Source of the DNA: a virus
Direction: 5' to 3' (one strand)
UHGV virus genome: UHGV-0135878
Length of the DNA stretch: 39,269 bases
A model generated the notes under the pieces. It saw only the letters and a list, made by a program, of their open reading frames with translations, searched no databases and was not told where the DNA came from. Shown piece by piece: positions 2,076-30,440 of the stretch; position 1 is the stretch's first letter, and every line of letters begins with the position of its first letter. Both the position numbers and the translations under genes were made by a program.

Positions 2076-3095
2076 TTACGTAGTTACCATAGTTGCTAAT
2101 GGATTAAAACGTAGCGCTGTTTCTAGGTGGTCAGGAGCCAGATGAGCATAGCGCATGGTCATTTTTATGTCGTGATGCCCAAGGATTTTCTGCAGAGCCA
2201 GGATGTTTCCGCCGGACATCATAAAGTGTGCTGCGAACGTATGACGCAGAACGTGTGTTAGCTGACCGCGTGGAAGCACAATAGAAGTCTTATCCATTAC
2301 AGATAAAAACTGGAAGTAGCAGTCAGTGAAGAAATTGAAACCGTCTAGGGCAATGATTTCCTCATACAGCTCTTTGCTAATCGGAATGCTTCGGTTCTTT
2401 TTGCCTTTGGTCCTGACGAATGTGATCCGGTATTTCGTAACCTGAGAACGGGTTAGGTTCACAGCTTCGCGCCAGCGTGCTCCGGTGCTCAGACAGATTT
2501 TAACGACAAGAGCGAGCAGGGGACTTTGGCGGTTGCAGTCGTACAATAGCTCGGTAATTTGTTCATGCGTCAGCCAGGCCATCTCCTTTTCTGCGATGGT
2601 GAATTTTCGCATGTTCTCCAGTGGGTTCGGATACGACCATTCGCCCAGGCGGGATAGTTCGCTAAAAACACTACTTAGATAGCTTTGCTCCAGGTTAATG
2701 GTGACCGGGCTTGCTCCTTTCTTCCATTTCTCGCTGAAGTAGATCTCGCCTGTCAGGCGTTTATCTCGATAGTGGGCAAACATTTTAGAGGTGAGATCAG
2801 TTGCAAGGGGATTGCCCAGAGCGTCAACCATCAGCAGCAATTTGTCATAGACATGCTGCCCAGCAGTCAGTGATTTACCATGTAGTTTGAACCATAGCTC
2901 AACCACGTCTTTTAGTGTTCGACGATCCACTGATTCACCTAGCCAGGGCTTTGCTTCGGTTTCTTCCATCGTGTGACGCTCAAAAGCCAGTGCTTCGCCT
3001 TTGGTGGCGAATTGTTTACGCACACGACGCCCACTACGTCCGGCGGGGTAACATTCGCAAAGCCATTTTCCTGTGGTGAGTTTTCGTACAGCCAT
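2076..3095 (-). CDS. int: Tyrosine integrase (P2 Int family)
   Basis: ATG at 3095 chosen over track start 3251 (P2-like N-terminus MAVRKLTTGKW); C-terminal LRHTFA...MRYAHL catalytic R-H-R-Y signature. Confidence 0.9.
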   Translation of the reverse strand: MAVRKLTTGKWLCECYPAGRSGRRVRKQFATKGEALAFERHTMEETEAKPWLGESVDRRTLKDVVELWFKLHGKSLTAGQHVYDKLLLMVDALGNPLATDLTSKMFAHYRDKRLTGEIYFSEKWKKGASPVTINLEQSYLSSVFSELSRLGEWSYPNPLENMRKFTIAEKEMAWLTHEQITELLYDCNRQSPLLALVVKICLSTGARWREAVNLTRSQVTKYRITFVRTKGKKNRSIPISKELYEEIIALDGFNFFTDCYFQFLSVMDKTSIVLPRGQLTHVLRHTFAAHFMMSGGNILALQKILGHHDIKMTMRYAHLAPDHLETALRFNPLATMVTT

Positions 3096-3283
3096 AAAAA
3101 ATGCCCTCCAATAGAGAGCATTTTTACTGTATGTATAACCAGTGTCAATATATGAAATCCTGCGACCATACATCTCACTGAAGCCATAATGAAGTAGGCT
3201 ATTCTTTTTGCTATGTGAGCATGTAACTTTTGCGGTTAACCTGTGGCTCATTTTTATTTTAGGCGCAGATATAAAAGCAAAAG

Positions 3284-3475
3284 TTATCGTGAGTTTTTAG
3301 TACAGATTTTTTTGGATTTACTAATAGTTCCATCATTGCAAACGAATTTGCCATCTGAGGTACAGTGAGAAACACCTCCCTTTTTCCCTGAGCAGGGATA
3401 ATTTCTAGCATAGGTAGCTAGTGGGTTTAATAACAAAGAACATGACAAAACCACAAAAAATACCTTACCAAGCAT
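3284..3475 (-). CDS. Small secreted Cys-rich protein (63 aa, signal peptide, 4 Cys in mature part)
   Basis: ATG at 3475 preceded by strong RBS GGGAGGA; starts 15 nt after the cI stop on the same strand; N-terminal hydrophobic signal-like segment. Confidence 0.5.
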
Positions 3476-9857: not shown

Positions 9858-10091
9858 ATGCGCATTGAAATAATGATCGATAAAGAGCAGAAGATTAGCC
9901 AGTCTATCCTGGACGCCCTTGAATCCGAGCTTTACCGCAATCTGCGCCCCCTGTATCCCAAAACGGTAATTCGTATCCGCAAAGGTAGCTCTAACGGTGT
10001 GGAACTGACCGGACTGCAACTGGACGAAGAAAGAAAACAAGTGATGAAAATTATGCAGAAGGTGTGGGAAGACGACAGCTGGCTGCATTAA
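9858..10091 (+). CDS. DinI-family protein
   Basis: 77 aa, MRIEIMIDKE...DALESEL...WEDDSWLH resembles DinI; RBS GAGGTGA; ATG at 9858. Confidence 0.7.
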   Translation: MRIEIMIDKEQKISQSILDALESELYRNLRPLYPKTVIRIRKGSSNGVELTGLQLDEERKQVMKIMQKVWEDDSWLH

Positions 10092-11293: not shown

Positions 11294-11658
11294 CGCGCGC
11301 ACCTTCTAATAATTACAAAGTCATTGAGATATGCAGGGGATATTCTATATTTCATTTAATCGATATACCCAACCGAGCTACTAGATTGATTGTGCAAAGT
11401 TAATCAACTAACTATTAGGTGAAAATATATTCCCAATAGTTATCATTCAGATTTATTTAATTCCTCGTTCGTATCATTTTTTATTTACCAATAAGCTGTG
11501 TGATTTTTATGTTAAATTAACGGCAATAGCATAATATGTTGTGAAAATGTGATGAGATCTACTTGATATTATTTTTATAATGGTGTTAATTGTTAGTCAG
11601 CTAAACGGTGTTACATTTTATTTTCAACGAAATTAAGTTTTTGTCATGGAGAGGCTTT

Positions 11659-12480
11659 ATGAAGGTTAGTTTTGATGTTGTTATTAAAAGTGGTGCTTAT
11701 GATGTTGATATGGATTACGCGCTTAAAACATTAGCTGGTACATCGAATGTAGTTTGCCTTTTGGCAGAAGCGATACTTCGTGGAAGAATTATTGAACGGC
11801 GTACCCATGCAAATGATATCAGAGCAAAGCTTAAACACAGTTTTCCGGGTTCTTATGGTCAAAAATTTGACATCGAGATAAATGACTCGACACTGATTTC
11901 TCGTTTGAATTCTATGGGACGTAGTGTTTTCTCTGAAGTAATGAGTTACTATATTTGTGAAGCGCTATATGTTGAGCATAATGGTTTGACAGATGCAGCA
12001 CAGAAAATCATTGATAGTTTAGTTGCAATAGAGGATGAGCTTACAAAGCGAATTCGTTCCCCACTAAAAGATATGCATAAAGTCACTACAATGAATGGTT
12101 ATAATGTTGAGTTATCTTATCGAAAACCTGGATCACCAGAAAACATTATAACGTTGACACCAGAAACTGAGATTAATATTTCAGATACTGAAATACTACA
12201 GGTTTCCCATGATATATCTGTAATCATAACTCGTTTTAATTCAATGACAGGAAATGGTCGACTTATACTTGAAGGGTATGAAGAACATGGCACTGTAGCA
12301 TTTGGATTTTATGATAATTTAAGATATGTAACAGAAAACCATAAAAGACAAATCACTCAAAACTTGCATCACAATAATGGCCTTCCATCAGATAGATGGC
12401 AATATATGAATTTAACTGTAAGTGATATGGTTCTTCCTAGTGGGGATGTTATTAAATATCTAATTCGTAATATACCTTGA
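11659..12480 (+). CDS. Hypothetical 273-aa soluble protein, first gene of accessory operon
   Basis: ATG at 11659 with RBS GGAGAGG (track start 11608 is upstream in-frame); strongly AT-rich; no motif recognised. Confidence 0.65.
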   Translation: MKVSFDVVIKSGAYDVDMDYALKTLAGTSNVVCLLAEAILRGRIIERRTHANDIRAKLKHSFPGSYGQKFDIEINDSTLISRLNSMGRSVFSEVMSYYICEALYVEHNGLTDAAQKIIDSLVAIEDELTKRIRSPLKDMHKVTTMNGYNVELSYRKPGSPENIITLTPETEINISDTEILQVSHDISVIITRFNSMTGNGRLILEGYEEHGTVAFGFYDNLRYVTENHKRQITQNLHHNNGLPSDRWQYMNLTVSDMVLPSGDVIKYLIRNIP

Positions 12481-12490
12481 TAGAGTTATT

Positions 12491-13186
12491 ATGAAAATTC
12501 ACTCTATTAAAATCTTTGCTGCATTAGTAATTATAATTACGTGGTTGAGTTATTTTGCAAAGTTTGGTGATTGGTTTAACTTCTCGAGTGATACGGCTGT
12601 TTGGGGGCAGTTTGGGGATTTTTTAGGAGGGGTGATTAATCCACTGCTTACATTTATATCTGTTGTTTACTTGATTAACTCTGTAAATCTTCAGCGAGAG
12701 GCGAACGCTAGCCTGATTGCGCTTGAAGAGTTTAAGAAAACTGAGACCAAATTTTATAACATGCTTGAGTCACAACGAAGTGGCTTCGAAAGCTTTAAAA
12801 TTGTAGATAGTGTGGATGGGAAACCTTTAGTTATCAAGGACGGTGACGCGGTTACATATATTGAGGATGTTGTTGTAGAAATGGTAATCCAAGGAAGTAC
12901 AAAAGGAGAAATCTCAAATAAAATAGGTGGAATGGATAAAGCGGATAATATATTTAGTATAGTGAGGCGCTTTCATAATATTATTAAGTTGATTAAAAGG
13001 GAAATTCCGGAAAACTTAAGAAGTGAATATTATGATAGTTTAGTTAATATGACTGAGTATAAGCAAATATGTCTTATATTAATATCAATGGAGCTTTTTG
13101 ATTGGCCTATTTTAAGTAGCATTGATGAAAGTGGTGTGTTTAATATTGAGGCATTAATGGAATATAGAAAAGCATTTAGACCATAA
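12491..13186 (+). CDS. Hypothetical 231-aa membrane protein (two N-terminal TM helices plus ~170-aa soluble domain)
   Basis: ATG 10 nt after upstream stop; hydrophobic segments at about residues 7-26 and 41-62; AT-rich. Confidence 0.65.
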   Translation: MKIHSIKIFAALVIIITWLSYFAKFGDWFNFSSDTAVWGQFGDFLGGVINPLLTFISVVYLINSVNLQREANASLIALEEFKKTETKFYNMLESQRSGFESFKIVDSVDGKPLVIKDGDAVTYIEDVVVEMVIQGSTKGEISNKIGGMDKADNIFSIVRRFHNIIKLIKREIPENLRSEYYDSLVNMTEYKQICLILISMELFDWPILSSIDESGVFNIEALMEYRKAFRP

Positions 13187-21536: not shown

Positions 21537-21975
21537 ACTGCAGAAGGTGGACGACTGGCTGAGTGCTTTGCTGGCGAATCTGGAACCAGCCGCAAGAAGC
21601 CGCATGATGCGCCAGCTGGCGCAGGAACTGCGCCGGACACAGCAGCAGAATATCAGGATGCAGCGCAACCCTGATGGCAGCAGCTATGAACCTCGACGGG
21701 TAACAGCACGCAGTAAAAAGGGGTGCATCAAACGTCAGATGTTTGCAAAGCTGCGCACCACAAAATACCTGAAAACTGCCGCCAACGCCGACTCTGTCAG
21801 TGTGCAGTTTGAAGATAAGGTGCAGCGCATTGCCCGCGTTCACCATTATGGCCTGCGTGATCGAGTTAGATATAAGGGGCCAGAAATACGTTATACAGAG
21901 CGACGTCTATTAGGCTTCTGCACTGAGAGTAACGATGCTATTAGTATAATTTTACTTCGTTATCTAACTAGTTGA
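21529..21975 (+). CDS. S: Tail completion protein (P2 gpS family)
   Basis: 148 aa from GTG at 21529; last ~100 nt become abruptly AT-rich at the boundary with the SIR2 cargo gene. Confidence 0.8.
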   Translation: MAELQKVDDWLSALLANLEPAARSRMMRQLAQELRRTQQQNIRMQRNPDGSSYEPRRVTARSKKGCIKRQMFAKLRTTKYLKTAANADSVSVQFEDKVQRIARVHHYGLRDRVRYKGPEIRYTERRLLGFCTESNDAISIILLRYLTS

Positions 21976-22047
21976 TATGTCTTGTTTTTTGTGGGTTTTT
22001 ATAACATCATATTGGCTCTGTTATAAATAGTATGGAGAGTTTGATTG

Positions 22048-23253
22048 ATGAAAAAAAATAACGATATCAATAAACAAGTAAAATCAGAAACAGAAAATAA
22101 TTCATCTGCAAATATGAATGGAAGTGGCTCGGATGAAATCCTTTCTAAGAGCACCTCTGGTACGGTGGTATGGGGAGATAACAGTTTTGGAAGTATTTCT
22201 AAATATATTAATGAGGTACTCGGTAAGAATTTATATTTAGATATAATTAAATCTCTTGATGCTAAGTTGAAAGCACCAGTTCAAGCTAATAGAACTACTA
22301 TATTAAAGAACCTGAAGGGTAATTTCAAAGAGGAAAATCTTGTGCTTGTATTAGGCGCTGGAATTTCTTTGGATTATAAAATACCTACATGGGATGAATT
22401 ATTAAGGAGGTTGCTTGCTAGAGCGTTACAAGATACTAATGAAAATCAGCAAGTTGTTGCGACATTATTTAATCAGGTGTTCGGGCCAAATGCTTTGATT
22501 GCGGCTAGATATTTAAAGTTACATTTTGAAAGTGCTAACACTCCTCTTGAGAAAGAAATTCAGAAAGTGTTATATCAATTTTATGATAGCACCGAGAGTC
22601 AAACGCTTAAGGCGATAAAGAAATTATGTATTTCTGCGGGGAAGGCTCCGGGGTTAGATTCTGTCATAACATATAATTATGACGACATACTAGAGCAAAC
22701 ATTACAAAACGCAGATGTTGGTATTAAATTTAAGGTTATATATAAAACTGGGCAGCATGCAAAAAAAGATGAGTTGCCAATATATCATGTTCATGGATAT
22801 CTTCCCTTAAATGGTAAGATTGATAGTGATGACAGCCTAGTTTTATCGGATGAAAGTTATCATCGGCAATATATGGATTTATATCACTGGAGTAATATGG
22901 TTCAGTTGAATAAATTCAAAGACAATAATTGTTTGTTTATAGGACATTCCTTTACTGATCCAAATTTAAGACGTCTGCTTGATGCTGCTAAAAAGTTAAG
23001 GGGTAATGATTCTAAACCTCATTACTTAATAAAATGTCGACACTCAAAAGATGATGTTATAAATAAAATTCTAAAAGGTTCACGTCAAGATTTGAATGAC
23101 GGGCTAGTCGACGATATAGACAATGTTGCCCGTTCTTTATTAGATACTGTACATAAATTTGAAGAAATTGATGCTAACTCTTTTGGTGTTAATGTTATAT
23201 GGATTGATAATTTTACTGAAATAGGCCCCATAGTAACTGATTTAACTCAATAA
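22048..23253 (+). CDS. SIR2-like (ThsA-type) NAD-binding domain protein, standalone, 401 aa
   Basis: ATG at 22048 with RBS GGAGAG; SIR2 motifs VLVLGAGISLDYKIPTWDELL, ITYNYDD, IYHVHGY, CLFIGHSFTDPNL; very AT-rich; inserted between S and V. Confidence 0.75.
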   Translation: MKKNNDINKQVKSETENNSSANMNGSGSDEILSKSTSGTVVWGDNSFGSISKYINEVLGKNLYLDIIKSLDAKLKAPVQANRTTILKNLKGNFKEENLVLVLGAGISLDYKIPTWDELLRRLLARALQDTNENQQVVATLFNQVFGPNALIAARYLKLHFESANTPLEKEIQKVLYQFYDSTESQTLKAIKKLCISAGKAPGLDSVITYNYDDILEQTLQNADVGIKFKVIYKTGQHAKKDELPIYHVHGYLPLNGKIDSDDSLVLSDESYHRQYMDLYHWSNMVQLNKFKDNNCLFIGHSFTDPNLRRLLDAAKKLRGNDSKPHYLIKCRHSKDDVINKILKGSRQDLNDGLVDDIDNVARSLLDTVHKFEEIDANSFGVNVIWIDNFTEIGPIVTDLTQ

Positions 23254-23266
23254 ATCTTGTTTTAGT

Positions 23267-23284
23267 TGTGCCGGCAATGGCACA
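23267..23284. promoter_or_regulatory. TGT-N12-ACA dyad, candidate Ogr-type late-activator site for the V operon
   Basis: tgtgccggcaatggcaca inside an 8-bp inverted repeat (23265-23286), about 56 nt upstream of V ATG. Confidence 0.35.
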
Positions 23285-23331
23285 ACTGTCTTAAGTTATT
23301 TTCCTAATAATATTTTTGTAAGTTGTGTGCC

Positions 23332-25161: not shown

Positions 25162-25759
25162 TCTGCTGCCACCGGGTTCAACGCCACTGGAGCGCCGACT
25201 GGCGCAAGCGTGTAGCGGGATTTCTGATCTGCAGGTGCCGCTGCGTGACTTGTGGAATCCGGCAACCTGTCCGGTCAGTTTCCTGCCTTATCTCGCCTGG
25301 GCGTTCTCTGTGGATCGCTGGGATGAGGGCTGGACAGAAAGCGTCAAACGCCAGGTGGTGAAGGATGCTTTTTATATTCATCAGCATAAAGGAACCACCA
25401 GTGCCGTGCGGCGGGTGGTGGAGCCGTTCGGCTTTCTGATCCGCATTATTGAGTGGTGGCAGACCGGAGAGACACCGGGCACGTTTCGCCTGGATATCGG
25501 CGTGCAGGACCAGGGCATCACTGAAGATACCTATCTGGAACTTGAGCGACTGATAAGCGATGCCAAACCATGTAGCCGTCACATGATCGGCATGTCCATC
25601 AATCTGCAGACCAGCGGCCCGCATTGGGTGGGAGCCGCCAGCTATCTTGGCGAAGAAATCACGATCTATCCGTATATCAACGAAACAATTATTTCCGGCG
25701 GCACCGCGCATGAAGGCGGGGCGGTCCATGTTATTGACACAATGAGAGTGAATCCATGA
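25154..25759 (+). CDS. I: Baseplate/tail protein (P2 gpI family)
   Basis: 201 aa, between J and tail fibre. Confidence 0.85.
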   Translation: MNSLLPPGSTPLERRLAQACSGISDLQVPLRDLWNPATCPVSFLPYLAWAFSVDRWDEGWTESVKRQVVKDAFYIHQHKGTTSAVRRVVEPFGFLIRIIEWWQTGETPGTFRLDIGVQDQGITEDTYLELERLISDAKPCSRHMIGMSINLQTSGPHWVGAASYLGEEITIYPYINETIISGGTAHEGGAVHVIDTMRVNP

Positions 25760-27390
25760 GCACAAAATTTTATACCCTGCTGACGGATATTGGCGCGGCG
25801 AAACTTGCCAGCGCCACCGCGCTCGGTGTGCCGCTAAAAATTACCCATATGGCGGTGGGCGATGGCGGCGGAACATTGCCAACGCCGGACGCAAAGCAGA
25901 CTGCACTGGTAAATGAGAAACGCCGGGCTGCGTTGAATATGCTCTATATCGACCCGCAGAACAGCAGCCAGATTATTGCTGAACAGGTGATCCCTGAAAA
26001 CGAGGGCGGTTGGTGGATACGTGAAGTGGGCCTGTTTGATGAATCAGGTGCATTGATTGCCGTGGGCAACTGCCCGGAAAGCTACAAGCCGCAACTGGCT
26101 GAAGGCAGCGGGCGTACCCAGACCGTGCGCATGGTGCTGATTACCAGCAGCACGGACAATATCACCCTGAAAATCGACCCTGCTGTAGTGCTGGCAACCC
26201 GCAAGTATGTGGATGACAAGGCACTGGAGCTGAAGGTGTACGTGGATGACCTGATGGCAAAACATCTTGCCGCGCCGGACCCGCATTCACAGTATGCACC
26301 CAAAGAAAGTCCAACGTTTACCGGAACCCCCAAAGCGCCAACGCCAGCGGCGGGGAATAATACCACGCAGCTTGCGACCACCGCATTTGTTCAGGCGGCA
26401 CTGACGGCTCTTATTAATGGTGCGCCAGCCACGCTGGACACGCTGAAAGAAATAGCCGTAGCCATTAACAATGATCCGAAATTCAGTACCACCATTAACA
26501 ATGCGCTGGCACTGAAAGCGCCGCTGTCGAGTCCGGCACTCACTGGAACGCCAACAGCCCCCACTGCGGCGCAGTCGGTCAATAATACACAGATTGCCAC
26601 TACGGCTTTTGTGAAATCAGCGATTGCAGGAATAGTGGGTTCTGCACCTGCGGCACTGGATACACTGAACGAACTGGCGGCGGCACTGGGGAATGACCCG
26701 AACTTTGCCACGACAATGCTTAATGCACTGGCAGGTAAACAACCGCTGGACAATACGCTGACTAATTTGAGTGGAAAGGATGTAGCTGGTCTTCTCACAT
26801 ACCTTGGTTTGGGAGAAGGCTCTGCATTACCTGTTGGTGTCCCTGTTCCGTGGCCTTCAGCCACTCCGCCAACAGGCTGGCTGAAATGCAATGGTGCGGC
26901 TTTTTCTGCTGAAGAATACCCGGAACTGGCAAAGGCTTACCCGACAAATAAATTGCCAGATTTACGTGGTGAGTTTATTCGTGGCTGGGATGACGGGCGA
27001 GGGATTGATGAGGGGCGCATACTTCTCAGTTGTCAGAGTTTTGCTTTCCAGGACCATGCGCACGCTCTGCCAACCGGAGTGGGTAATCCGTCAGACCAGA
27101 TGGAAAGCGATATCTATGCGGTTTTCAACGATGTACCAGAAATACCCAGTGCGGCCCTGAGTCCATCGTCGTCAGGAACATCATGGGACGCAACCAGTAG
27201 GGCAGACAAGGTAATCCTTTATCGCAAGGACCTTTCACCAACAGGTAATAACAACGCAATAGCGACCGGATTACCACCATTCAGGACTTACAGGGCATCG
27301 ACCTCAGACGGTGTTACTCATCCGTCCGTGTACGCATCTGAAACCCGTCCGCGCAACATTGCATTTAACTACATCGTGAGGGCTGCATAA
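25756..27390 (+). CDS. H: Tail fibre protein (P2 gpH family), current orientation of variable C-terminus
   Basis: 544 aa; N-terminal constant part; crossover site inside the gene at codons YLGLGE (26800-26817). Confidence 0.9.
   Translation: MSTKFYTLLTDIGAAKLASATALGVPLKITHMAVGDGGGTLPTPDAKQTALVNEKRRAALNMLYIDPQNSSQIIAEQVIPENEGGWWIREVGLFDESGALIAVGNCPESYKPQLAEGSGRTQTVRMVLITSSTDNITLKIDPAVVLATRKYVDDKALELKVYVDDLMAKHLAAPDPHSQYAPKESPTFTGTPKAPTPAAGNNTTQLATTAFVQAALTALINGAPATLDTLKEIAVAINNDPKFSTTINNALALKAPLSSPALTGTPTAPTAAQSVNNTQIATTAFVKSAIAGIVGSAPAALDTLNELAAALGNDPNFATTMLNALAGKQPLDNTLTNLSGKDVAGLLTYLGLGEGSALPVGVPVPWPSATPPTGWLKCNGAAFSAEEYPELAKAYPTNKLPDLRGEFIRGWDDGRGIDEGRILLSCQSFAFQDHAHALPTGVGNPSDQMESDIYAVFNDVPEIPSAALSPSSSGTSWDATSRADKVILYRKDLSPTGNNNAIATGLPPFRTYRASTSDGVTHPSVYASETRPRNIAFNYIVRAA
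26792..26817. other. Invertase crossover site (gix/hix-like, left): TTCTCACATACC TT GGTTTGGGAGAA
   Basis: Two 12-bp half-sites fitting TTnTCnnAAACC around a 2-bp centre; inverted copy at 28478-28503; lies in-frame inside H. Confidence 0.6.
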
Positions 27391-27995
27391 TGGCGAAAGC
27401 AAAATTAAACAGTGCGTTTATTGCCACCGTGGCAGGAGAAATCACTGTGTACAACTACCGGGGCGACACCCGCGAATACATATCCTCATCGGTTGAGTAT
27501 CTGCCTGTGGGGGTGGGTATTCCTGCCAATTCCTGTACCGATGCGCCCGGCACACATAAGGCTGGTTATGCAATCTGCCGTTCTGCAGATTTTAACTCAT
27601 GGGAATATGTGTCAGACCATCGCGGTGAAATTGTCTATGGCATCGAAACGGGGGAATCAAAAGAAATTACTGTGCCGGGGGATTACCCTGAAAATACGAC
27701 CACTTTTGCCCCATTAACGCCATACGATAAATGGGATGGTGAGAAATGGGTAACAGATACCGAGGCACAGCATAGCGCCGCAGTAGATGCAGCAGAAGTA
27801 CAGCGCCAGTCTCTGATTGATGCTGCTATGGCTTCCATCAGTCTGATTCAGCTGAAATTGCAGGCCGGACGTAAACTGACGCAGGCAGAAACAACCCGCC
27901 TTAACGCTGTGCTGGATTACATTGACGCGGTGACGGCAATAGATACCAGCACCGCGCCTGATATTATTTGGCCTGTATTCCCTGAGACTGATTAA
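27390..27995 (+). CDS. G: Tail fibre assembly chaperone (P2 gpG family)
   Basis: 201 aa, TAATG overlap with H; C-terminal DTSTAPDIIWP motif typical of Tfa proteins. Confidence 0.85.
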   Translation: MAKAKLNSAFIATVAGEITVYNYRGDTREYISSSVEYLPVGVGIPANSCTDAPGTHKAGYAICRSADFNSWEYVSDHRGEIVYGIETGESKEITVPGDYPENTTTFAPLTPYDKWDGEKWVTDTEAQHSAAVDAAEVQRQSLIDAAMASISLIQLKLQAGRKLTQAETTRLNAVLDYIDAVTAIDTSTAPDIIWPVFPETD

Positions 27996-28224
27996 CCTCA
28001 ATCAGTATTGGTTCGCCTTTCTCATTAATTGTTAGCTCCATGCCCTGAGGAATTTCTGTCATAGTAAAAAACCAGTTGTCCTCCGGTAATTCAATAGCCC
28101 CGGTCACGTCATGAAGACCGGGGATTACTTCAGTCAAAGTAACTGGATTAAACAGGCGCACAATAAACCCTCCATGAAAAAGCATTTGATGATGGTCTGC
28201 CGTCGTACATCTGGCAGCGGGCAT
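27964..28224 (-). CDS. Small ORF in reverse cassette, possible alternative fibre chaperone (start uncertain; GTG at 28161 has RBS GGAGGG)
   Basis: Follows the alternative fibre cassette on the minus strand; no Tfa signature recognised; overlaps G tail-to-tail by 32 nt. Confidence 0.3.
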   Translation of the reverse strand: MPAARCTTADHHQMLFHGGFIVRLFNPVTLTEVIPGLHDVTGAIELPEDNWFFTMTEIPQGMELTINEKGEPILIEVNQSQGIQAK

Positions 28225-28492
28225 AAAAGCCGGTATTTGTTACCTGATCATCCACGATCATTGAAACGTGAACATTATTAGGTGTGCTCTCGTAATCCGT
28301 TCTTATTCTTTCTGCGATACTGATAAAACGTGAAAGTTTAGGCAGTGCAATTGGGTAAACGACTTTAGCCAGTCCATTATCATTAGATCCACCGGTTCCA
28401 AATACTTCTATTGCACCATCTGACCAGCGTACCCATGCACCATTGGCATTAGCTCCTCGCTGAATGACATATCTGGCTTCTCCCAAACCAAC
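28148..28492 (-). CDS. Promoterless alternative tail-fibre C-terminal cassette (Hv'), expressed only after inversion
   Basis: Minus-strand frame continues from shared VGLGE codons at the right gix site into ~110 codons ending at the 28148 stop; the track Met start at 28531 is outside the segment. Confidence 0.6.
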   Translation of the reverse strand, partial: VGLGEARYVIQRGANANGAWVRWSDGAIEVFGTGGSNDNGLAKVVYPIALPKLSRFISIAERIRTDYESTPNNVHVSMIVDDQVTNTGFYARCQMYDGRPSSNAFSWRVYCAPV

Positions 28493-28503
28493 GTTTATGA
28501 AAA
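28478..28503. other. Invertase crossover site (gix/hix-like, right): TTCTCCCAAACC AA CGTTTATGAAAA
   Basis: Left half-site is the exact reverse complement of the right half of the 26792-26817 site; 55 nt upstream of the invertase ATG. Confidence 0.6.
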
Positions 28504-28558
28504 TGCAGAGATAATGGCTAACTGGCATCATCCCCGGTTTTTATTCAGGGGGATGCTC

Positions 28559-29125
28559 ATGCTTATTGGCTATGTACGCGTGTCAACAAATGACCAGAAC
28601 ACCGATTTGCAACGTAATGCACTGAACTGCGCGGGATGTGAGCGGATTTTTGAGGATAAAATCAGTGGCACTAAGTCCGACAGACCAGGGTTGAAAAAAC
28701 TGCTCAGGACACTATCGGCAGGAGACACGCTGGTTGTCTGGAAGCTGGACAGGTTGGGGCGCAGTATGCGGCATCTTGTTACGCTGATAGAAGAGTTGCG
28801 TCAGCGAGGCGTGAATTTCCGAAGCCTGACTGACAGTATTGATACCAGCACCCCAATGGGCCGTTTCTTTTTTCATGTCATGGGTGCCCTGGCTGAAATG
28901 GAACGCGAACTGATAGTTGAACGTACCAGGGCAGGGCTGGCTGCAGCTCGTGCCAAAGGCAGAGTAGGTGGACGCCGTCCTAAGTTGACCACCGAACAGT
29001 GGGCACAGATTGGGCGTTTACTCGAGGCCGGAGAATCAAGACAGCGTATTGCACTGATTTTTGATGTGGGCGTTTCTACCATTTATAGAAAATTTCCGGC
29101 GAATGAGAACAATGAATCGCCCTGA
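28559..29125 (+). CDS. Serine DNA invertase (Gin/Hin/Pin/Cin family)
   Basis: 189 aa from ATG at 28559; N-terminus MLIGYVRVSTNDQ with catalytic Ser, C-terminal HTH. Confidence 0.9.
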   Translation: MLIGYVRVSTNDQNTDLQRNALNCAGCERIFEDKISGTKSDRPGLKKLLRTLSAGDTLVVWKLDRLGRSMRHLVTLIEELRQRGVNFRSLTDSIDTSTPMGRFFFHVMGALAEMERELIVERTRAGLAAARAKGRVGGRRPKLTTEQWAQIGRLLEAGESRQRIALIFDVGVSTIYRKFPANENNESP

Positions 29126-29173
29126 GTCAGCATTATTTTGATTTTTCCTGTAAGCGGACAAATACCGTTATTT

Positions 29174-29191
29174 TGTGTGAATAACGACACA
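29174..29191. promoter_or_regulatory. TGT-N12-ACA motif, candidate Ogr-type late-activator site for the FI operon
   Basis: tgtgtgaataacgacaca about 85 nt upstream of FI ATG. Confidence 0.3.
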
Positions 29192-29267
29192 ACTGCGCTT
29201 AGCTGTTTGTCAGGCACAATCACTTCAACATAGGGCGAAGCCTAATCCAATCAGGAGGTTCGCCACT

Positions 29268-30440
29268 ATGGCTCAGGATTACCACCACGGAGTGCGCGTT
29301 GTTGAAGTCAACGAAGGCACCCGAACCATTACCACGGTGAGCACCGCCATCGTGGGTATGGTCTGCACGGGCGATGATGCCGATGCAAAAATGTTTCCTC
29401 TTAATAAACCCGTGCTGATCACTGATGTGCTGACTGCCAGCGGTAAAGCGGGTGAGTCCGGCACGCTGGCCCGTTCGCTGGATGCCATCGCTGACCAGGC
29501 AAAACCCGTGACCGTTGTTGTGCGTGTGCCGCAGGGGGAAACGGAAGAAGAAACCACGACCAATATCATCGGCGCAGTGACTGCTGAAGGTAAAAAAACA
29601 GGCATGAAAGCTCTGTTATCTGCACAGTCACAGCTCGGCGTTAAACCGCGCATTCTCGGCGTGCCAGGCCACGATAACAAAGCCGTTGCGACTGAGTTGC
29701 TGAGCGTGGCGCAAAGCCTGCGTGGGTTTGCTTACCTGTCAGCGTATGGCTGCAAGACAGTGCAGGAGGCGATCACTTACCGCGAAAACTTCAGCCAGCG
29801 CGAAGGGATGCTGATCTGGCCTGACTTTACTGGCTGGGACACGGTGCTGAATGCCGAAGCAACGGCATATGCCACCGCTCGTGCGCTCGGTCTGCGCGCC
29901 AAAATTGATGAGCAGACCGGGTGGCACAAAAGCCTGTCCAACGTGGGCGTGAACGGTGTCACCGGAATTTCTGCTGATGTGTTCTGGGATCTGCAGGACC
30001 CGGCAACCGATGCAGGTCTGCTTAACCAGAACGACGTTACCACGCTTATCCGCAAAGACGGTTTCCGCTTCTGGGGTTCCCGCTGTCTGAGCGATGATCC
30101 GCTCTTTGCCTTCGAAAACTACACCCGAACCGCGCAGGTACTGACGGACACGATGGCAGAAGCGCACATGTGGGCGGTAGACAAACCGCTGAATCCGTCG
30201 CTGGCTCGCGACATTATCGAAGGTATCCGCGCCAAAATGCGCAGCCTGGTCAGTCAGGGGTATCTCATTGGTGGTGATTGCTGGCTGGACGAGTCGGTGA
30301 ACGACAAAGACACTCTGAAAGCCGGGAAACTCACGATCGACTACGACTACACGCCAGTGCCGCCACTTGAAAATCTGATGCTGCGCCAGCGCATCACCGA
30401 TCAGTACCTGGTGAATTTCGCCAGCCAGGTCAGCGCGTAA
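29268..30440 (+). CDS. FI: Tail sheath protein (P2 gpFI family)
   Basis: 390 aa, RBS CAGGAGG, order FI-FII-E-T-U-D. Confidence 0.9.

Follow-up and report, generated by a model that had tools for sequence, protein, structure and literature searches.

What does the DNA between the tail-fibre gene H and the tail-sheath gene FI of a P2-like prophage do, and, if it is a switch, what does the silent side of it encode? The locus lies in virus genome UHGV-0135878, of which we analysed a stretch of 39,269 nucleotides (the window), an E. coli prophage of the 186/P2-like type. A first-pass annotation made from the letters of this DNA had proposed a Gin/Hin-type tail-fibre switch, a proposal borne out by an intact invertase, two inverted sites, an in-frame fusion and inversion in natural genomes. 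The switch of H tips in this prophage is a Gin/Hin-type DNA inversion system of the Mu-G-segment type, real but ordinary; inversion in P2-like prophages has been published before, and the window adds one further example. The explanation as a whole, in which a Gin-family invertase flips positions 26804-28491 and so exchanges the H tips, has in our estimate a probability of about 0.93.

Layout of the invertible segment

The window has the arrangement known from the Mu G and P1 C segments. The fibre gene begins with a constant 5' part that the segment does not include, and the crossover keeps the reading frame; the segment carries two alternative 3' ends on opposite strands, each followed by a partner gene of its own, and the gene for the invertase adjoins the segment on the outside. 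The H open reading frame extends from 25756 to 27390. Its constant part, codons 1-349 (25756-26803, forward strand), carries the Pfam Phage_tail_fib N-terminal domain (E=2.7e-65), and the left crossover site falls within the gene. This gix/hix-like site (26792-26817, forward strand), which bounds the observed inversions, reads TTCTCACATACC-TT-GGTTTGGGAGAA and codes in the H frame for L-T-Y-L-G-L-G-E. The right site (28478-28503, forward strand) precedes the invertase start at 28559 by 55 nt and reads TTCTCCCAAACC-AA-CGTTTATGAAAA, so that the two stand in inverted orientation. Their asymmetric central dinucleotides TT/AA (26804-5 on the left, 28490-1 on the right) match, and the core common to both sites is 15 bp of perfect identity. 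When the whole 39-kb window was scanned for the consensus TTNTCNNAAACCNNGGTTTNNGANAA with up to three mismatches, these two sites were the only matches, each with 1 mismatch, against a chance expectation of 0.01 and with 2 matches in none of 100 shuffles. Moreover, 26792-26818 and 28477-28503 form the arms of the longest inverted repeat in 25500-29800 (27 nt, 85% complementary); together, these two results uphold the pair of inverted 26-bp sites reported in the first-pass annotation. The sites of more than 50 related loci are always an inverted TT...AA pair, with the inner half GGTTTGGGAGAA conserved.

The segment itself measures 1688 bp from central dinucleotide to central dinucleotide (26804-28491), and its inversion recreates sister genomes base for base. 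When it is flipped in silico, an open H' of 463 aa results, in which codons 1-354, ending in ...YLGLGE, are followed by 109 new residues; this agrees with the earlier estimate that inversion of about 1.7 kb would join H codons 1-354 to a C-terminus of about 110 aa.

The invertase gene (28559-29125, forward strand) lies outside the segment and encodes a serine DNA invertase of the Gin/Hin family, 188 aa in length, with the Pfam domains Resolvase (residues 3-135) and HTH_7 (residues 138-181). With Mu Gin the protein shares 77% identity over 181 aa; it aligns over its full length to the Gin structures 3uj3 and 4m6f (E=1.8e-92 and about 1e-92, respectively) and retains the catalytic Ser9 within its VRVSTNDQ motif. 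By alignment to Gin, the equivalents of the residues that contact Fis and the enhancer are Q150, R153 and L154 (in QIGRLL) together with K46, K47 and R50; we take the numbering of the window invertase to differ from that of Hin by an offset of +1. In Hin, the residues that have been reported as peculiar to invertases dependent on Fis and the enhancer are Q151, R154 and L155 and the basic residues 47, 48 and 51 (PMC3798978). For Gin, the cis-acting enhancer with its two Fis sites is situated in the 5' part of the invertase gene. A candidate recombinational enhancer is located in the 5' coding region of the window's invertase gene (28580-28643, forward strand), where two Fis-like G-N13-C 15-mers, at 28580-28594 and 28629-28643, occupy gene nt 22-36 and 71-85. 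Mu gin has equivalent 15-mers at identical gene positions. The 15-mers, 49 bp apart from centre to centre, were picked by position and G...C ends only, and the region is 73% identical to Mu gin, a similarity for which coding constraint alone could account. We infer that 28580-28643 may serve as the enhancer and that inversion would be Fis-dependent, invertases of this family requiring Fis and negative supercoiling in vitro.

In the mechanism that we propose, the invertase would bind both inverted 26-bp sites and cut the central TT/AA with a 2-bp stagger, after which half of the synapse would rotate, leaving 26804-28491 inverted. Host Fis probably helps this reaction by binding the putative enhancer, which would lie within the gene's first ~90 bp. 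In the orientation of the window, the late operon would make a 544-aa H with a collar-domain tip along with the Caudo_TAP assembly protein G; in the flipped orientation, a Gp53-like tip of 109 aa would continue the reading frame of the same 354 N-terminal H codons, and a 65-aa partner would follow. If the two orientations are expressed in this way, the virions released by a lysogen population would be of two kinds, distinguished by their receptor-binding tips.

Both orientations in natural genomes

Inversion is seen directly when close relatives are compared. E. coli strains 61 and 64 are identical over 8 kb apart from an exact inversion of the segment, the possible boundaries of which extend from the central TT through the common core TTGGTTTGGGAGAAG. 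Strains DG342-2 and DG341-1 form a second, otherwise identical pair that differs by the same exact inversion. In one IMG/VR locus, L020, the segment is flipped relative to the window, while 12.8 kb of flanking DNA is 99.95% identical, the invertase protein is 100% identical and both 26-bp sites are identical too; the flip must therefore have been a very recent one in this very lineage. Each of these three independent comparisons of near-identical genomes shows the segment exactly inverted, the breakpoints falling within the site core in an interval that starts at the central TT. The order of the window recurs in about 36 complete E. coli genomes and the flipped junction in 35; these are consensus orientations and not switching rates.

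One could imagine a relic whose sites and invertase are recognisable, inversion having ceased through, for example, a defective enhancer or an unexpressed invertase. A simple scan for a sigma-70-like promoter ahead of the invertase gene found none, though such a scan is uninformative, and the enhancer is a putative one. Both points would fit a frozen locus, but the flipped locus with the same invertase, the same sites and nearly the same flanks speaks directly against it, as do the two clonal pairs that differ by the flip alone, and we regard cessation as very improbable. Scarcely credible is a second possibility, that the genomes differ in orientation through the choices of assemblers, or because RecA recombined the short inverted repeat, the invertase playing no part. 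Assemblers do take one path through an invertible repeat, and the 15-bp common core is perfectly identical. A choice between paths, however, requires reads for both, which in itself implies a mixed population, and the start of the breakpoint interval coincides exactly with the central dinucleotide in a canonical site beside an intact invertase. A repeat of 15-27 bp is also far under the usual substrate length of RecA.

The two tips and their partners

The variable tip now expressed (Hv; 26806-27390, forward strand) comprises about 190 aa and carries the Pfam Phage Tail Collar domain (E=1.3e-14); its PHROG matches are tail collar fibre families, and its relatives occur in 716 phage records, HK97 stf and P2 H among them. 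The partner of this collar tip is a gene G-like tail-fibre assembly protein of 201 aa (27390-27995, forward strand), identified by Pfam Caudo_TAP (E=2.1e-30) and by phrog_105, tail fiber assembly (E=7.6e-96). The silent alternative tip (H'v; 28148-28489, reverse strand), GLGE plus 109 aa, matches the family Gp53-like_C (PF21882) weakly, at 18.3-18.8 bits, under the gathering score of 24.9; the same family is matched by 8 of the 14 members of the H'v family, with a best E of 1.1e-6. Neither sequence search nor profile search found a credible PDB relative of H'v, and single-sequence AlphaFold2 models were unusable (pLDDT 42.2 for the alternative tip and 50.8 for the 65-aa protein). The first-pass annotation had suggested comparing the two C-termini with known receptor-binding domains, and on this comparison they are dissimilar, Collar for Hv and a weak Gp53-like_C for H'v. 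By analogy with Mu, P1 and carotovoricin, a difference in host range between the two orientations may reasonably be expected.

The partner of the silent tip is a 65-aa protein, here called mini-Tfa (27964-28161, reverse strand). Its start is the GTG at 28161, with GGAGG 7 nt upstream, the same as in the RefSeq call WP_001440573.1. The resulting MRLFNP start is found in all 56 IMG/VR relatives, which were collected by scanning viral contigs with a degenerate DNA pattern for MRLFNPxTxTEV, and in 19 aligned protein homologues chosen from 123 found. The GTG with its GGAGG and the conserved start rule out the ATG at 28224, which would give 86 aa. A short, atypical chaperone candidate had been described earlier at 27964-28224: short it is, although its coordinates have to be revised to 28161-27964, and its length to 65 aa and not 86. 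The accompanying suggestion that it may be degenerate is contradicted by a conserved family of 58-69 aa, in which median dN/dS is about 0.13, with synonymous sites saturated, and codons 6-54 are under purifying selection. The 3' ends of mini-Tfa and G overlap by 32 bp. That mini-Tfa is a by-product of reading G in antisense is ruled out, since only these last 32 nt are shared and the selected codons lie at 6-54.

Mini-Tfa has no match in Pfam or NCBIfam. It does match phrog_5400, of which it covers only positions 1-66 of the 145-position profile, and it is 34% identical (E=3e-13) to residues 1-56 of gene_1 of Cronobacter phage JK004, the rest of which is a Caudo_TAP C-domain and whose gene sits after a Gp53-like tip. 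The sequence beyond residue ~56 is not conserved, and the protein ends at residue 65 without the conserved C-terminal helical domain of Caudo_TAP (motif ...DTS.AP.I.WP). Profile comparison of the family with G/U-type assembly proteins gave no match (hhalign probability 0.9%). Judged from its sequence, mini-Tfa is a homologue of the N-terminal domain of a two-domain tail-fibre assembly protein, and is not degenerate.

In modular assembly proteins such as TfaMu and Pam3 gp25, a variable N-domain binds the fibre and conserved C-terminal helices trimerise (PMC9608196); according to the summary of North et al. 2019 given there, the C-terminal trimerisation domain is thought to drive fibre assembly (PMC9608196). 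Mini-Tfa resembles these proteins in being homologous to residues 1-56 of a Caudo_TAP protein with two domains and in occupying the position of gene G; unlike the TfaMu and Pam3 gp25 type, it has no C-terminal Caudo_TAP domain. Since it is without the trimerisation domain, the flipped state might give poorer fibres. Taken further, this argument would make the switch real but its flipped state a dead end, in which the fibre folds poorly because the 65-aa partner is a truncated assembly protein, the reverse cassette being a decaying remnant. The partial profile match, the C-domain present in the JK004 homologue and absent here, the unconserved tail and the occurrence of the Gp53-like tip in only 3 cultured-phage records would all fit such decay.

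The genomic record of the family, however, makes decay unlikely. The short length is kept: in 47 of the 48 IMG/VR loci readable to the stop (8 more, whose contigs end before it, are left out of the count), mini-Tfa has 58-69 aa, the exception being the frameshifted L019, and short forms also make up most of the ~120 listed protein clusters. In all 50 loci with a readable upstream gene it directly follows a Gp53-like tip, and in 49 of these 50 the two genes overlap by 14 nt, which suggests translational coupling. Low dN/dS and the retained overlap both argue against a remnant, as does H'v being the expressed 3' end of H in the 35 complete E. coli genomes in the flipped state. Furthermore, in at least 8 diverged P2-like loci, the Gp53-like tip and mini-Tfa are the only fibre module; these loci contain neither an invertase nor a Caudo_TAP ORF within 5-14 kb.

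Rather than a remnant, mini-Tfa could define a widespread class in which the tail-fibre partner has been pared down to its fibre-binding N-domain, a domain that works alone, having lost the conserved C-terminal trimerisation domain, and is enough for Gp53-like tips. We advance this tentatively, rating its chances a little short of even. The data suggest that a Gp53-like tip may need just a helper of ~60 residues, perhaps a chaperone or an adaptor bound to the tip. If such a class exists, it serves invertible cassettes and is the sole fibre partner of some P2-like phages. Mini-Tfa is of modest interest for the engineering of receptor-binding modules of phages or tailocins.

Relation to known inversion systems

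The half-site pattern of the 26-bp inverted sites is the same as in the Mu G segment with Gin, and as in the P1 C segment with Cin and the e14 P segment with Pin. As in Mu, the segment has the invertase gene right beside it, at the end farther from the constant fibre part, and two convergent cassettes each consist of a tip and a partner gene; the left site falls within the fibre gene and is read in the same frame, as Y-L-G-L-G-E in the window and as N-L-G-L-Q-E in Mu. The differences are of scale and detail. The window's segment measures 1.7 kb and that of Mu 3 kb, the constant part runs to 354 codons, compared with about 170 for Mu S (from the annotated G-segment boundary of Mu), and, while the site layout matches, the central dinucleotide is TT/AA and not the TC/GA that we read from the gix sites of the Mu genome. 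An AA centre is also found in hix sites. The phage is P2/186-like, unlike the Mu-like host of the G segment, and one of its partners is a 65-aa protein of an N-domain only, in contrast to the full U/U'-type assembly protein of Mu. Salmonella Hin/hix shares with the window the enzyme family, the 26-bp sites and the Fis/enhancer-contact residues (PMC3798978), but Hin flips a promoter, whereas inversion in the window swaps the 3' end of a coding sequence.

The closest precedent is in the P2-like prophages of E. coli E2348/69 (EPEC), where tail-fibre inversion was shown by sequencing and PCR and both orientations coexist in cultures (Goldberg et al. 2014, PMC4272514). Those loci belong to the same phage group and have the same location, with fibre genes on one side and the sheath gene on the other; they also use the same mechanism, an invertase and inverted repeats yielding alternative fibre C-termini; the tip pair may or may not coincide with that of the window. 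The same work also describes a three-site shufflon (PMC4272514), whereas the window has a simple two-site switch. Invertases have also been noted at the P2 Z/fun hotspot (bioRxiv 10.1101/2024.10.15.618418). The switch in the window largely changes nothing: it is a further Mu-G-like switch, presumably of host range, where such switches have already been demonstrated.

The practical use of the finding is in annotation. RefSeq labels both the silent tip and mini-Tfa "hypothetical protein", and sister genomes annotate both fused forms of H as 'phage tail protein', with CDSs of 1635 nt and 1392 nt; the fibre protein of one prophage carries two accessions according to orientation. Finally, at the position where the annotation of a 99%-similar genome has a "TIR gene", that label is ruled out for the window, whose gene there has a SIR2 domain.

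Natural inversion of a tail-fibre segment

The segment at 26804-28491, in which two cassettes of a tip and a partner gene converge, flips in nature. Over 8 kb, the only difference between the E. coli strains 61 and 64 (Switzerland) is an exact inversion, found at matching coordinates in their 4.770- and 4.771-Mb chromosomes; its admissible breakpoints begin at the central TT and extend through the common core TTGGTTTGGGAGAAG. The identical kind of exact inversion separates the chicken isolates DG342-2 and DG341-1 (chromosomes both 5,067,659 bp). The flanks of an IMG/VR contig, L020, differ from the window by 6 mismatches over 12.8 kb, with the segment flipped, the invertase protein 100% identical and both crossover sites identical as well. 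The window order of the 3.6-kb region is present in 36 complete E. coli genomes, and 35 have the flipped junction between the tail-fibre gene H (25756-27390) and its post-inversion form H', counted when H-H' was found as a single contiguous match. The first-pass annotation had held that the occurrence of one orientation only would refute its proposed switch; since both are seen across genomes, in the strain pairs, in L020 and in the 36 and 35 complete genomes, the proposal stands. Tip exchange would presumably have a consequence for host range, and any switching rate is likewise a matter of inference.

The switch, carried by a P2-like phage, is of the Mu-G/P1-C/e14-P type. Experiments published in 2014 demonstrated inversions in EPEC P2-like prophages (PMC4272514), and systematic surveys recognise fibre-gene inversions as a class (PMC9881135). 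This kind of switch is thus already known, and the only mildly new aspect is a conserved mini-partner gene.

Crossover sites and invertase

The longest inverted repeat within 25500-29800 has its arms at 26792-26818 and 28477-28503. When the 39 kb were scanned with the gix/hix-type consensus TTNTCNNAAACCNNGGTTTNNGANAA, allowing up to 3 mismatches, the only 2 matches were the two crossover sites, with 1 mismatch each (chance expectation 0.01; two matches were reached in no shuffle). The left site (26792-26817, inside H) reads TTCTCACATACC-TT-GGTTTGGGAGAA and the right (28478-28503, 55 nt before the invertase start) reads TTCTCCCAAACC-AA-CGTTTATGAAAA; the sites are therefore inverted, and have in common the inner half-site as well as a central dinucleotide that is asymmetric. 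Across more than 50 related loci the TT...AA inverted pair is found wherever both sites are present, and the inner half-site is conserved. The gix sites of the Mu genome are arranged alike; there too the left one falls within the fibre gene, and it is translated in the same frame, as N-L-G-L-Q-E in Mu and Y-L-G-L-G-E in the window. In-silico inversion of 26804-28491 yields an open H' of 463 aa, composed of codons 1-354 and 109 new residues. Repeat search, consensus scan and in-silico flip together bear out the site positions and fusion originally read from the sequence.

The serine invertase (28559-29125, 188 aa, Resolvase and HTH_7 domains) aligns end to end with the sequences of Gin crystal structures (E=1.8e-92); it shares 77% identity with Mu Gin and retains Ser9. 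It keeps Q150, R153 and L154 as well as K46, K47 and R50, which correspond to the residues reported to be specific to Fis/enhancer-dependent invertases (PMC3798978), and switching may well depend on Fis and an enhancer. The first ~120 nt of its gene are 74% identical to gin, and two G-N13-C 15-mers occupy equal positions in both genes (gene nt 22-36 and 71-85). These features fit a gin-like enhancer, which we treat as a candidate because coding constraint could give equal similarity to gin.

In a complete genome, NZ_CP182374.1 (2131539-2153513), two different P2-like prophage halves meet at their fibre genes across a 1.9-kb segment bounded by H-type invertase sites at 9929 and 11814 of that locus. 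Its order is V W J I H Tfa followed by the opposed Tfa H I J W V, with no invertase between the sites. Such joins suggest invertase-mediated chromosomal inversion between co-resident prophages via the invertase sites. The same layout is seen in two draft IMG/VR contigs (L054 and L065), where repeat-induced misassembly could also have produced it.

Two tip cassettes and a 65-aa partner protein

The tip now expressed (26806-27390) has a Phage Tail Collar domain and relatives in 716 phage records, HK97 stf and P2 H among them; the gene after it encodes a Caudo_TAP assembly protein of 201 aa. On the minus strand, the silent tip (28148-28489) matches Gp53-like_C weakly, at 18.3-18.8 bits for a cut-off of 24.9, and the same domain is matched by 8 of 14 of its relatives (best E=1.1e-6); a search for a relative of solved structure found none for this tip. 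It occurs in only 3 cultured-phage records, yet is common in prophages. The convergent partner genes overlap by 29-32 bp at their 3' ends (27964-27995 in the window), whereas Mu U and U' lie 28 bp apart; this antisense overlap is conserved in L004 (2639-2667) and L005 (2366-2394), loci of phages 500465-1 and Cartapus.

The partner of the silent tip is best read from a GTG at 28161 to 27964, encoding 65 aa; GGAGG lies 7 nt upstream, and the RefSeq start call agrees. The start MRLFNP is present in 56/56 IMG/VR relatives, collected with a degenerate DNA pattern of the partner N-terminus and all true members, and in 19 aligned protein homologues. Homologues form 123 protein clusters from Escherichia, Enterobacter, Salmonella, Citrobacter, Hafnia, Erwinia and Xenorhabdus, mostly about 57-66 aa long; listed lengths of 73, 86 and 90 aa probably reflect earlier start calls. 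In 8 of the 56 loci the contig stops before the gene ends, and 47 of the 48 readable to the stop encode 58-69 aa. The exception, L019 (2861-2953, minus strand), is frameshifted past residue ~31 beside a fragmented sheath gene and, unlike the conserved family, is a decaying copy. Over codons 6-54, the region free of overlap with any other gene, median dN/dS is 0.13, with synonymous sites saturated in most pairs. A Gp53-like tip lies directly upstream in all 50 loci with a readable upstream gene, overlapping by 14 nt in 49.

At least eight diverged P2-like loci (L012, L017, L027, L032, L040, L045, L048 and L059) have, as their only fibre module between I and FI, H with a Gp53-like tip and a ~60-aa partner directly before FI. 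This module is fixed and non-invertible: neither an invertase nor a Caudo_TAP ORF was found within 5-14 kb in these eight, and the site at the H junction is degraded or unrecognisable.

A 128-aa homologue in Cronobacter phage JK004, likewise placed after a Gp53-like tip, matches the small protein over residues 1-56 (34% identity, E=3e-13), the remainder being a Caudo_TAP domain. Assembly proteins are described as combining a variable fibre-binding N-domain with a conserved helical trimerisation C-domain (PMC9608196). Taken with the JK004 match, this layout marks the 65-aa protein, as judged from sequence, as an N-domain-only version of an assembly protein; it may help the tip to fold, remain bound to it or have another role. 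The first-pass annotation had called 27964-28224 a short, atypical and perhaps degenerate chaperone candidate: "atypical" is apt, but the gene is not a wreck, because its many clusters, stable length, low dN/dS and constant tip pairing argue otherwise. JK004 is an unrelated phage of 94 kb. At 2640-3387 of its locus L007, a Gp53-like tip fragment that looks promoterless starts with the crossover motif LGE, with a site-like sequence upstream, at 1888, and precedes the two-domain protein; the fragment could be what is left of an invertible or exchangeable fibre module, or a second cassette belonging to one.

Prophage setting and cargo

The window is a complete-looking 186/P2-like E. coli prophage adjoining ybjL. 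Its gene order, as annotated in RefSeq for a genome with 99% identity across the region of interest, is integrase, CI, CII, replication gene, portal/terminase, capsid, lysis, baseplate V-W-J-I, H, G (the Caudo_TAP assembly gene), recombinase, sheath FI, tube FII, tape measure, D and ogr. The switch sits in the P2 "Z/fun" hotspot, between H and FI; earlier work has already noted invertases there (bioRxiv 10.1101/2024.10.15.618418).

The position of the P2 old/tin cargo hotspot, upstream of the portal gene, is occupied by two adjacent plus-strand ORFs (11608-12480 and 12491-13186; 290 and 231 aa), which gave no Pfam or PADLOC match. A SIR2_2-domain cargo gene (longest ORF 22045-23253, plus strand; Pfam E=1.4e-21; LmuA/ThsA/Dsr1-like matches in PADLOC) separates the S-like virion-morphogenesis gene from baseplate gene V. 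The surrounding interval, 21864-23331, is absent in the relatives L016 and L043 and looks like a defence-type moron island within the late operon. A near-identical prophage in strain Combat2C1 carries a TIR-domain gene at the SIR2 position.
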